Source of the DNA: an uncultured archaeon
Lineage (GTDB): Archaea; Asgardarchaeota; Heimdallarchaeia; Heimdallarchaeales; Kariarchaeaceae
DNA: 11,634 bases
Assembly (NCBI GenBank): GCA_964645535.1
Contig: CAZYCQ010000064.1
Coordinates: 1 to 11,634 of the forward strand
Reading direction: 5' to 3'
Below the pieces are notes generated by a model. It was not told the DNA's origin and searched no databases. It saw nothing but the letters and a program-made list of their open reading frames with translations. Below, piece by piece: positions 1,060 to 5,884 of the stretch (position 1 is the stretch's first letter; every line of letters starts with the position of its first letter). The translations under genes and the position numbers were made by a program.

Positions 1060-2076
1060 TTATGCAGGTGTCGCTTTGCCGCCTAGGATCTCTTCGGGCT
1101 TGACGAAATCGATTGCTGCAAATCTGTTGATTTTGGCGATCTGGACTCCGGCTTTGGCTAAAGCTTCCCTGAAATTATTGACCAGCTTGCTGTGCATGTT
1201 CCTGTAGACAAGTATCGCGGGATAGAAGGCAGGGGCAATAAGCACCACTATCAGAATCGAAAAGATGACGTAAACCAAGACCAAGGTAATCTGGTCTACA
1301 AGGATATTTCTGTAGATAAATTCTCTTTCAAGCATGAAATATCCAAGCACCAAGCCGGAGAAAACAAGAAAACGATCGATGTAGTCGAAGAGATCCACTT
1401 TTGTCGGGATCATCTGACCGTTGTCTTCCATCACCAGTACCCTTGCATCCTCGATCACCAGATTCATTGGCAAGTACAGCCCAGTGACCACAAAGGCGAT
1501 CAGCATGGCTCCAAGGATCAACGCAACAAGGAAGAAATCATCGCTTTCCTGTTTCCTGAAGATGTCGAGGATGTAATACAGGGCAATGTAGAAAAGGGAC
1601 AGGTAAGTGATGACAAACCTTCGGGAGAACTTGAGCATGTTCCATAGCTTCCGGTAATCCAAGTCGGGGGCTTCCAATCGCAGAAATGCCTTTTCAAGGT
1701 TCTCCGAGAAAAGCACCCTTGCCATGATTCCGGACAGTTGCAGGAAGTCACTCTTTCCATCCCTTACTGCCTTGATCGGGTTGATGTACAGGATTCTGAG
1801 GAGAATCCTTGTTATTATCGTCCAGACAAACCCCATGATATAGCCTACGGGAACGAATGCAACCACTGCACCAATGAGGAAGCTAGAGTCTGCAAACTTC
1901 GAAGTGCTTTCAAATTGGTTGAGAAAGAGATGGATGTAGTCAGAGAAGGTATATGCCAACCCTGCCGTTACAGCTAGGGATGCAAGGATGAACAACAGAT
2001 CCACCATGAAATTTGCCTGCCTGACATCCTGTCGAAAGATTTCTTGGATGTCTCGTTCCTGAAGCTCTTGTTTCAT
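1060..2076 (-). CDS. Hypothetical polytopic membrane protein (about 6 TM), last gene of the minus-strand operon
   Basis: 338-aa ORF with about six long hydrophobic segments arranged in pairs. AGGAGGT lies 8 nt before the ATG, and the gene starts 15 nt after the upstream stop. Confidence 0.88.
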   Translation of the reverse strand: MKQELQERDIQEIFRQDVRQANFMVDLLFILASLAVTAGLAYTFSDYIHLFLNQFESTSKFADSSFLIGAVVAFVPVGYIMGFVWTIITRILLRILYINPIKAVRDGKSDFLQLSGIMARVLFSENLEKAFLRLEAPDLDYRKLWNMLKFSRRFVITYLSLFYIALYYILDIFRKQESDDFFLVALILGAMLIAFVVTGLYLPMNLVIEDARVLVMEDNGQMIPTKVDLFDYIDRFLVFSGLVLGYFMLEREFIYRNILVDQITLVLVYVIFSILIVVLIAPAFYPAILVYRNMHSKLVNNFREALAKAGVQIAKINRFAAIDFVKPEEILGGKATPA

Positions 2077-2084
2077 TTCTCATG

Positions 2085-4911: not shown

Positions 4912-5884
4912 GTTTCTTACCTCTTTTTGCAATGATGATCAGAAGTGAGAGGGTCGTTGCCATGGAAATCGCTGACATGAACGGCAACGACAGGATGAAT
5001 GCACCGCTTGTTTCATTCCCGGTGATCTCTGTGAAATTAGTCTGGGTCGGAATTTCTGTGTCATTGATCAATGTAATTGGGTCAAATGTTGGAACTGCAC
5101 AGTCTGGTGTCCATTCCAAAGACTCATTGATAATCACGTCATTGTTAAAAATGACGGTGAAGTTAATGGTGTATGTGTCCATTTCTGTTGGGAACCAAAG
5201 GAATTCATCGCTATACGTTTCATAGAGGTTGTAGAAAAATCCCGATGAAAATTTTTCTTCTACGACCTCATTTGTGGAATTCATGATGGTCAAATGCAGT
5301 TTCATCTCTCCCGTTTGGTTGTAGCCGACAACATTGAAAAAGAAATTCACTGTCTCATTGCATCCATCTCCATCTTGATCCAGAAACTCCGCACCATAAT
5401 CAAATACGAATGGGTCTTCCGAGACAGCCCCTTCAATTGTAACATTCCTGGAATGCATAATAATGCCCGTATCGTCAAACTTTTGGCTGTCTGTTATGGT
5501 TACATTGACCTGATAAAGTCCAGGTTCCCAGATCAAGAACTCATAGGAACTGGAGACGGGTTCATCTGCGGATACATTGGCTGTAATGAAATCAAATTCT
5601 TCATAGATCAAGACGAATTCCGTATTGTTCAGCCAATAGATGTTTATCAACAGATCGAAACTGTAGTCAATAACCGTGGTATTGAATACGACAGAAGGGG
5701 CTACTACAATGGTGTCGTTGTCTAAATCACCATTGAAGTCCACTTCCTCCACAAAAAAGTCCCAAACGTATCCAATACCGTCATCCTGTTGCAGCGTTTG
5801 ATTGTTTCCGAATCCACTGAAAGATAGACCAACAATCAACAACTGCAAAATCATGAACACAAGAAAAGTTGACTTGACCTTCAT
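4904..5884 (-). CDS. Membrane-anchored surface glycoprotein with two Ig-like repeats carrying DxDGD Ca-binding-like loops
   Basis: Signal peptide MKVKSTFLVFMILQLLIVGLSFSG (ATG 5884 preferred over TTG 5896). Repeats start at EVDFNGDLDNDTIVV and FLDQDGDGCNETVNF. 15 N-x-S/T sequons counted by eye, very acidic, with a C-terminal TM helix and KRGKK tail. Confidence 0.87.
   Translation of the reverse strand: MKVKSTFLVFMILQLLIVGLSFSGFGNNQTLQQDDGIGYVWDFFVEEVDFNGDLDNDTIVVAPSVVFNTTVIDYSFDLLINIYWLNNTEFVLIYEEFDFITANVSADEPVSSSYEFLIWEPGLYQVNVTITDSQKFDDTGIIMHSRNVTIEGAVSEDPFVFDYGAEFLDQDGDGCNETVNFFFNVVGYNQTGEMKLHLTIMNSTNEVVEEKFSSGFFYNLYETYSDEFLWFPTEMDTYTINFTVIFNNDVIINESLEWTPDCAVPTFDPITLINDTEIPTQTNFTEITGNETSGAFILSLPFMSAISMATTLSLLIIIAKRGKKHE
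4919..4923 (-). promoter_or_regulatory. Shine-Dalgarno site (GAGGT) for the 939-aa gene, embedded in the upstream CDS
   Basis: The minus strand reads GAGGT-AAGAAAC-ATG(4911). Confidence 0.65.

Follow-up and report, generated by a model that had tools for sequence, protein, structure and literature searches.

A twin-hairpin protein family of Asgard archaea and Planctomycetota with possible pore-forming capacity, and its three-gene operon in a single archaeal genus

Do three tightly packed genes of an uncultured Asgard archaeon encode a device that can breach the membrane of another cell? The question is raised by a stretch of DNA (hereafter, the window) that comprises the first 11,634 bases of the 17,410-base contig CAZYCQ010000064.1 (C64) from a Kariarchaeaceae genome (3.6 Mb, 89% complete), in which three open reading frames (ORFs) follow one another on the minus strand: g1 (4904-5884, 326 amino acids (aa)), g2 (2092-4911, 939 aa) and g3 (1060-2076, 338 aa). 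A first-pass annotation, made from the sequence alone, took these genes for a pore-forming toxin module composed of a surface protein that displays or chaperones the toxin, the toxin itself and a membrane protein that confers immunity or acts as a receptor. The evidence bears out that toxin, immunity and chaperone reading only in part, and weakens it. The best explanation of the evidence is that g2 is a ring- or barrel-building, possibly pore-forming member of a family shared by Asgard archaea and Planctomycetota, which in this genus is embedded in a specific operon; it is held tentatively, with slightly less than even confidence, and its account of how the barrel closes and enters a membrane, which target it meets and what g1 and g3 do is conjectural.

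The case for this explanation starts from the C-terminal part of g2. An exhaustive HMMER search with g2 over 1.84 billion representative sequences (E<=1e-3) retrieved 192 protein clusters, nearly all of which align only to g2 residues ~565-905, in a region that usually ends proteins of 800-950 aa. This twin-hairpin module (residues 568-910; window 2182-3210, on the minus strand like all features of the three genes given below) is a conserved domain for which there is no Pfam model: among the 60 twin-hairpin domains from matched clusters that make up alignment A1, 58 match no Pfam family and the remaining two have sub-threshold matches only. Word-index searches with g1, g2 and g3 returned only the queries themselves or same-genus copies, and a search of the genome-contig library with g2 alone returned no relative. 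A full-text search of the literature found no description of either the twin-hairpin domain or the three-gene operon, in keeping with the first-pass remark that no archaeal system with such a layout was known to have been described.

The two hairpins of the module (hairpin 1, residues 612-685, window 2857-3078; hairpin 2, residues 792-857, window 2341-2538) were delineated by column analysis of the alignment and by profile matches to Cry78Aa and to anthrax protective antigen (PA), respectively. Column-wise hydrophobicity over the 60 sequences reveals, in both hairpins and family-wide, a strict alternation of hydrophobic and polar residues beside the turn, with about nine alternating hydrophobic positions per strand in hairpin 1 and about six per strand in hairpin 2, where they surround a Gly-Gly turn; Ser, Thr, Gly and Glu make up most of the polar positions, and the alternating zone is bordered by Ser/Thr tracts. 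More than 150 diverse sequences of the family share the amphipathic pattern. The amphipathic alternating hairpin with Ser/Thr flanks that is typical of aerolysin-type proteins is present in the g2 family as two hairpins, not one. Comparison of the A1 profile with all sequences in the Protein Data Bank (PDB) yielded matches to Cry78Aa over hairpin 1 (7Y79 and 7Y78, E 7.4e-5 and 1.9e-4) and to anthrax PA-63 over hairpin 2 (E 0.012-0.025), while parasporin-2, CEL-III and a coleopteran-active toxin were matched weakly; in the Cry78Aa and PA alignments, the matched parts are the segments by which those toxins insert. The published account of Cry78Aa describes an aerolysin-type pore-former whose membrane-spanning region alternates and has Ser/Thr flanks (PMC9363482).

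AlphaFold2 modelling of the C-terminal part of g2 from a single sequence was uninformative (predicted local distance difference test (pLDDT) 34). The model based on A1 (60 sequences) has a pLDDT of 80.9 and a predicted template modelling score (pTM) of 0.71; in it, a compact core modelled with high confidence bears two extended hairpins, whose strands are 32-36 residues long. When three copies of the module were modelled together, the interface score computed from predicted aligned errors (ipSAE) was 0.67, compared with 0.00 for the best of three controls, the mark for this score being one that was reached by 20 of 30 proteins with structures solved as pairs of one chain and by 1 of 23 solved as single chains, and a rough guide here given that a purpose-made alignment and three copies were used. 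The runs agree in at least 63% of the contacts, with a partner pLDDT of at least 59. The lowest-error contacts place model residues 233-238, in the first strand of hairpin 2, antiparallel to residues 120-125, in the return strand of hairpin 1 of the next copy, and the paired hairpins of neighbouring copies point the same way. The predicted geometry corresponds to an unbroken sheet to which each copy gives four strands, and this supports, but does not prove, side-by-side assembly. Together, the hairpin chemistry, the profile matches, the extended model and the three-copy model make a ring-forming, barrel-building and possibly pore-forming g2 plausible, and the protein can credibly be put forward as a candidate for one that forms rings, inserts a beta-barrel into membranes and carries a new twin-hairpin module. 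What the first-pass annotation had said of a pore-forming g2 stands to the extent that a propeller is joined to a toxin-type hairpin module, as the Cry78Aa and PA matches and the self-association model indicate; pore formation itself is a proposal.

Several observations weigh against this interpretation. The profile matches span Ser/Thr-rich segments of biased composition, ordinary beta-sandwich strands also show alternating hydrophobicity, the hairpin tips have a pLDDT of only 49-73 in the AlphaFold2 model, and a model of three copies cannot show a closed barrel. Furthermore, the fold searches with Foldseek and VIA-align yielded nothing above the trust level (8 for Z), which does not imply a new fold. 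Most members of the family stand alone, without conserved neighbours, and nine other loci of the g3 family (L039-L047) have no g2-like neighbour.

In both the Foldseek and the VIA-align fold search, secretin subunits came first (VIA-align Z 5-7.3, 97-113 aligned residues, root-mean-square deviation 5.9-10 Å); for the aerolysin family, Z was 3.6 to parasporin-2 and 2.5-3.1 to aerolysin pores, with the extended hairpins hampering comparison with soluble forms. Foldseek matched 9fm6 with a probability of 0.80 but a template modelling score of 0.17. Because the aerolysin and secretin scores are both below the trust level, the module is filed in neither family. In hidden Markov model searches at E<=0.1, g2 matches neither of the aerolysin and ETX-MTX2 models (PF01117 and PF03318), and among the 60 domain members there is one ETX_MTX2 match, at E 0.0013 and below threshold; the secretin model PF00263 matches neither g2 nor any of the 60 members. 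Of the first-pass parallel with aerolysin-family toxins, which pair a variable receptor-binding module with a conserved pore module, the variable head fits, one cluster of relatives carrying a NosD/beta-helix head in place of the propeller, and membership in the aerolysin family is unsupported (VIA-align Z 2.5-3.6).

In g2, the domain is joined to a propeller head. From its N-terminus, g2 consists of a signal peptide (a basic, hydrophobic stretch), a Ser/Gln/Pro-rich linker, an FG-GAP beta-propeller (approximately residues 210-575, window 3187-4284), the twin-hairpin module and an Ala/Gly/Thr-rich tail (residues 911-939, window 2095-2181). The propeller combines an above-gathering match to Pfam FG-GAP_3 (E 8.6e-8, 33.1 bits against a cut-off of 26.9) with four calcium-loop motifs of the DxDxDG type, at residues 304, 360, 410 and 476, as in FG-GAP or integrin-alpha-type propellers. 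These features, together with the two amphipathic hairpins, agree with the first-pass description of g2 as a secreted protein with an FG-GAP propeller and beta-hairpins. Among the relatives, FG-GAP repeats were found in seven of the ten heads scanned. The GC content is 0.39-0.40 inside g2 (propeller region, window 3001-4500), compared with 0.44-0.49 in the flanks.

The tail sets g2 apart from its kin. Where most archaeal relatives have a transmembrane (TM) helix and a polybasic tail, g2 has a weakly hydrophobic Ala/Gly/Thr stretch followed by KKQKCCN, and the end of the tail is kept in the orthologues from two genomes of the same genus, as KKQKCC in G026 and KKEKCC in G160. The paired cysteines behind the basic patch could be a site of lipidation or cross-linking. 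In addition, g2 contains no N-glycosylation sequons, compared with 5.1 expected (P 0.006). Sequon depletion was considered as a trait of the hairpin module across the family and rejected, as sequon numbers are normal in other members (54 against 62.8 expected in the domain of 23 members, and 92 against 88.8 in the head), so that the zero count is genus-specific. The absence of sequons, the KKxKCC tail and the gain of g1 and g3 suggest that a self-anchoring protein has turned into one that its partners would hold or release.

The twin-hairpin domain is patchily distributed. With the A1 profile, it is detected in 24 of the 301 genomes sampled from the same phylum (Asgard), belonging to 13 of 70 genera and with one to three copies per genome, so the gene is accessory. 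The named members of the family come from metagenome-assembled genomes (MAGs) of Hodarchaeales and from Planctomycetota, and the occurrence of the domain in both implies transfer between bacteria and Asgard archaea. The proteins from Planctomycetota MAGs (P0010/P0167, P0014 and P0068) are annotated as VCBS repeat-containing or hypothetical, and one of them has a lipoprotein-type signal. These named Planctomycetota proteins stop right after the domain, without a TM anchor. In the global library, a C-terminal TM segment is present in 21 of the 115 long representatives, the others ending just past the domain, and nearly all of the sampled Asgard genome copies outside the host genus combine a signal peptide with a C-terminal TM helix and a polybasic tail. 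In a FastTree phylogeny of 164 twin-hairpin domains, the named Planctomycetota proteins fall inside one large anchor-less clade, a second such large clade has no named member, and the TM-anchored sequences cluster together with the copies from Asgard genomes. On a long branch within an Asgard-dominated set of 18 rows (support 98) lie g2 and its two orthologues. Given this position among TM-anchored Asgard members, the absence of the anchor from g2 is probably derived.

The arrangement of the three genes was accurately described in the first-pass annotation, with coordinates, overlap, spacing and promoter-like element all confirmed. An AT-rich, putative TATA-like element, TTTTTATT (5913-5920), read from the sequence, lies 29-36 nucleotides (nt) upstream of the g1 ATG; an 8-nt overlap, ATGAATAG (4904-4911), contains the stop codon of g1 and the start codon of g2 and indicates translational coupling; and the Shine-Dalgarno-like AGGAGGT (2085-2091) opens the 15-nt gap between the g2 stop and the g3 ATG. 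The equivalents of the overlap are ATGAATAA in G026 and ATGACTAA in G160, and GGAGG is kept ahead of g3 in both these same-genus loci, so the coupling is not due to chance. On the plus strand, a convergent ORF of 228 aa (372-1058) ends with its stop codon one base from that of g3, and the three-gene unit is therefore closed there. The 228-aa product is itself a membrane protein with approximately three TM segments and no family match. Judged from this arrangement, g1, g2 and g3 are one translationally coupled and presumably co-transcribed operon, found so far in a single genus.

Beyond the genus, the operon dissolves. Full-length orthologues of g2 (40-42% identity) are found only in G026 and G160, where g1 (42-43% identity), g2 and g3 (66% identity) stand in the same order; at the G160 locus (L017, contig C302, 2145-5976), g1 and g2 are each frameshifted and g3 is intact, which reflects either decay or assembly error. 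A further genome of the genus, G045 (10 contigs, 93% complete), lacks all three genes; the family member that it does have is distant and TM-anchored, and the stop codon of that gene overlaps the gene for a 190-aa protein with five TM segments. None of the 21 other loci of the g2 family (L018-L038) contains a g3 homologue. In an all-against-all comparison of the neighbours at 24 loci, the only shared genes are the genus-specific g1 and g3, a small partner in three loci and a few distant ABC-type ATPases, and three further contigs with family members have unrelated neighbours. The neighbourhood check proposed with the first-pass annotation accordingly gives a split result: the homologues co-occur within the genus, in three genomes of which one has frameshifts, and do not co-occur outside it.

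These findings bear directly on the proposed immunity function of g3. A gene directly downstream of the presumed toxin gene, as expected of an immunity gene, is in place, since g3 follows after a 15-nt gap with AGGAGGT, an arrangement that recurs in G026 and G160. Co-occurrence across genomes is restricted to the three host-genus genomes in which g3 adjoins g2, and g3 belongs to no known immunity family: for g3 and 10 of its relatives, there is no significant match in Pfam, NCBIfam, PADLOC or the PDB sequences, and PADLOC matched none of the three genes of the operon. The hydrophobicity profile of g3 has six peaks, indicative of approximately six TM segments, in agreement with the first-pass view of a polytopic protein from an unnamed family. 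That family consists of membrane proteins of 340-390 aa with conserved PDxD, LYLP..EDA and VNxFR motifs (alignment A2), and occurs mostly within the taxonomic family of the host (6 of 10 genomes). The host genome itself encodes two g3 paralogues, one on contig C42 (43% identity) and one on C15, neither beside a g2-like gene; around the C15 copy, the neighbours are conserved in G026 and are ordinary cellular genes in a stable setting. The notion of a free toxin with a linked immunity gene is weakened on two counts, in that most archaeal relatives of g2 are type-I membrane proteins and the g3 family is elsewhere unlinked to g2-like genes.

A downstream membrane protein is, all the same, a recurring theme. 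In three other Asgard genomes, G045 among them, proteins of ~190-213 aa with four to five TM segments are encoded directly downstream of TM-anchored family members (L031 8398-8970, L021 4055-4630 and L030 7612-8253), with the genes overlapping or lying within 9 nt of each other. These small partners are homologous to one another (E 3e-15 and 4e-9), and the family members upstream of them share one clade of the tree. A relationship between g3 and these small proteins was considered and rejected, as BLAST shows no similarity. The presence of a polytopic downstream partner in two unrelated forms lends modest support to some kind of pairing with a membrane protein, not specifically to immunity. 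On a metagenomic contig (L052), a gene for a small GTPase of the Arf/Ras family (4359-4916) lies 85 nt upstream of a TM-anchored family member, in the same direction.

The third gene of the operon, g1, encodes a candidate type-I surface glycoprotein. The sequence bears out the first-pass description of a membrane-tethered, acidic glycoprotein with DxDGD loops: the protein begins with a hydrophobic signal and ends in a TM helix plus KRGKKHE, and it has 15 N-x-S/T sequons compared with 3.9 expected, an ectodomain with an isoelectric point of 4.05, and two DxDGD-type loops. Each loop opens a unit of ~120 aa, the repeat being weakly supported (E 0.047). No family match was found for g1, and outside the genus there are no relatives in the 301 sampled genomes or in a large protein index; the homologues are limited to those in G026 and G160 and to a degraded copy in the same genome. 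The latter, a partial paralogue on contig C134 (G000:C134:1849-2313), has ~50% identity to g1 over the N-terminal half and contains in-frame stops, and no g2- or g3-like gene is located nearby.

On the preferred explanation, g2 is a derived member of a family whose proteins unite a ligand-binding head, in most cases an FG-GAP propeller of the calcium type, with the twin-hairpin module of ~340 residues. The propeller would bind a ligand at a surface, whereupon twin-hairpin modules would join side by side into a ring; with four strands contributed by each copy, hairpin 1 would pair with hairpin 2 of the neighbour to build a long beta-barrel, the amphipathic tip of which would enter a lipid membrane, most probably of an adjacent cell. 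In the host genus, the usual C-terminal TM anchor would have been swapped for the Ala/Gly-rich KKxKCC tail and two coupled partner genes acquired, such that g1, a TM-anchored glycoprotein, may hold g2 at the cell surface, and the polytopic g3 may dock the complex or protect the producer.

The comparison with known systems outlines both the appeal and the oddity of such a protein. The pore-formers of the aerolysin/ETX-MTX2 class (Cry78Aa/Mpp78, 7Y78/7Y79; parasporin-2, 2ZTB; CEL-III) share with g2 a variable ligand-binding head on a conserved beta-rich module and an amphipathic alternating hairpin with Ser/Thr flanks, and self-association, too, is predicted for g2; however, they have one insertion hairpin per chain, where g2 has two with far longer strands (32-36 residues), their head is a lectin trefoil rather than an FG-GAP propeller, and most archaeal relatives of g2 are membrane-anchored. 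In anthrax PA-63 and the B components of binary toxins, it is the 2-beta-2/2-beta-3 membrane-insertion loop that aligns to hairpin 2 (at the E-values given above); PA resembles g2 in having calcium-binding elements and forms a ring oligomer with a long stem barrel, a ring being only predicted for g2. Unlike PA, which contributes one hairpin per copy, g2 has two, the match is weak and limited to the hairpin, and PA domains 1, 3 and 4 are undetected in g2. The secretins (GspD, InvG, PilQ, phage pIV) likewise have two long beta-hairpins per subunit, the large multimeric barrel being theirs; g2 differs from them in Z scores below 8, a Foldseek template modelling score of ~0.1, an identity of 4-8% and the lack of N0-N3 domains. 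Asgard archaea have a single membrane and no outer membrane, unlike the setting in which secretins operate. To secretins, as to MACPF/CDC proteins, the twin-hairpin domain bears a resemblance in strand count only. With integrin alpha chains, g2 shares FG-GAP repeats and DxDxDG calcium loops, and its archaeal relatives share the type-I topology and a short basic cytoplasmic tail; unlike in integrins, no Ig-like thigh or calf legs are recognised in g2, the twin-hairpin module being there instead, there is no beta-subunit partner, and g2 itself has no TM helix. That the host is an Asgard archaeon is borne out by an actin of eukaryotic type in its genome, which scores 455 bits with the Pfam Actin model, and by the Hodarchaeales origin of named g2 relatives.

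The same data can be read as those of a structural or adhesive surface complex, in which the propeller would mediate integrin-like adhesion and the hairpin ring would be a static, secretin-like stalk, pedestal or conduit in the envelope of the cell itself and not a weapon, with g1 and g3 as envelope partners. The integrin-alpha-like build of nearly all sampled Asgard relatives outside the genus fits such a complex, as do the secretins at the top of the fold search, with their two long hairpins per copy, and the second, tightly linked type-I glycoprotein found at several loci (L034, L036, L029, L022 and the window). A core part of the envelope would, however, not be expected in only 24 of 301 genomes and at low copy number; most clusters in the global library, the named Planctomycetota proteins included, end after the domain without an anchor, the amphipathic, Ser/Thr-flanked tips align to toxin insertion segments, and the secretin scores are below the trust level, with no Pfam match to back them. 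Such a complex is rather unlikely. More improbable still is the original scheme in its strict form, with g2 as a released pore-forming toxin, g3 as its dedicated membrane immunity protein or receptor, and g1 displaying or chaperoning the toxin. The position of g3, 15 nt behind g2 with a Shine-Dalgarno-like site and maintained within the genus, accords with this scheme, and the missing hydrophobic anchor and missing sequons of g2 fit a released, unglycosylated form; moreover, the intact g3 next to frameshifted g1 and g2 in G160 is reminiscent of orphan immunity genes, and the absence of the module from G045 marks it as accessory. The G160 frameshifts could, however, be assembly errors, the g3 paralogues on C42 and C15 and the homologues in related genomes are not beside g2-like genes, g3 resembles no known immunity family, about three quarters of the family loci have no downstream membrane gene, and the layout is known from just one independent lineage.

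At the opposite extreme, there might be neither a module nor a pore, but only co-transcribed, unrelated proteins, with the extended hairpins and the self-association being modelling artefacts of beta-sandwich strands. Surface glycoproteins and membrane proteins abound in Asgard genomes, which makes chance neighbours possible, and the low model confidence at the hairpin tips, the lack of a confident fold match and the orphan status of g1 outside its genus are compatible with such a coincidence. Against this stand the retention of the 8-nt overlap and the Shine-Dalgarno spacing in three genomes at only 40-66% protein identity, a self-association score that none of the three controls approaches, a consistent register of strand pairing and an amphipathic pattern that runs through the whole family; the coincidence is deemed unlikely to a considerable degree. 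The boldest extension of the preferred explanation, which is ventured as a long shot, is that of a new class of pore-formers in Asgard archaea and Planctomycetota, in which the propeller would aim the module, with its four strands per copy, at a touching cell; in the host genus, with g1 as the tether, an anchor-less g2 and g3 as the membrane partner, it would serve contact-dependent killing, feeding or syntrophic exchange.

The remainder of the window harbours two sizeable genes on the plus strand. The gene at 6544-8367, divergent from the operon, encodes a 607-aa multi-WD40 propeller protein (WD40 E 6e-55), for which the listed TTG start is probably too far upstream. The gene at 8519-11329 encodes another candidate surface glycoprotein, whose 936 aa include a signal peptide, 25 sequons and, ahead of a basic tail, a C-terminal TM helix; in this protein, Pfam detects Big_7 (E 4e-12) and CBM_56 (E 2e-6).

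To our knowledge, no pore-forming protein has been described from Asgard archaea. The twin-hairpin domain has no Pfam model yet is found in ~190 clusters, and looks like a new unit for building barrels, with the operon in the window being the most elaborate version among the family loci seen. If the boldest extension is true, the lineage closest to eukaryotes would possess a cell-to-cell, membrane-breaching device. A breach of membranes on contact would bear directly on how the closest archaeal relatives of eukaryotes physically interact with their partner cells, and the domain would then add a new scaffold to the nanopore repertoire.

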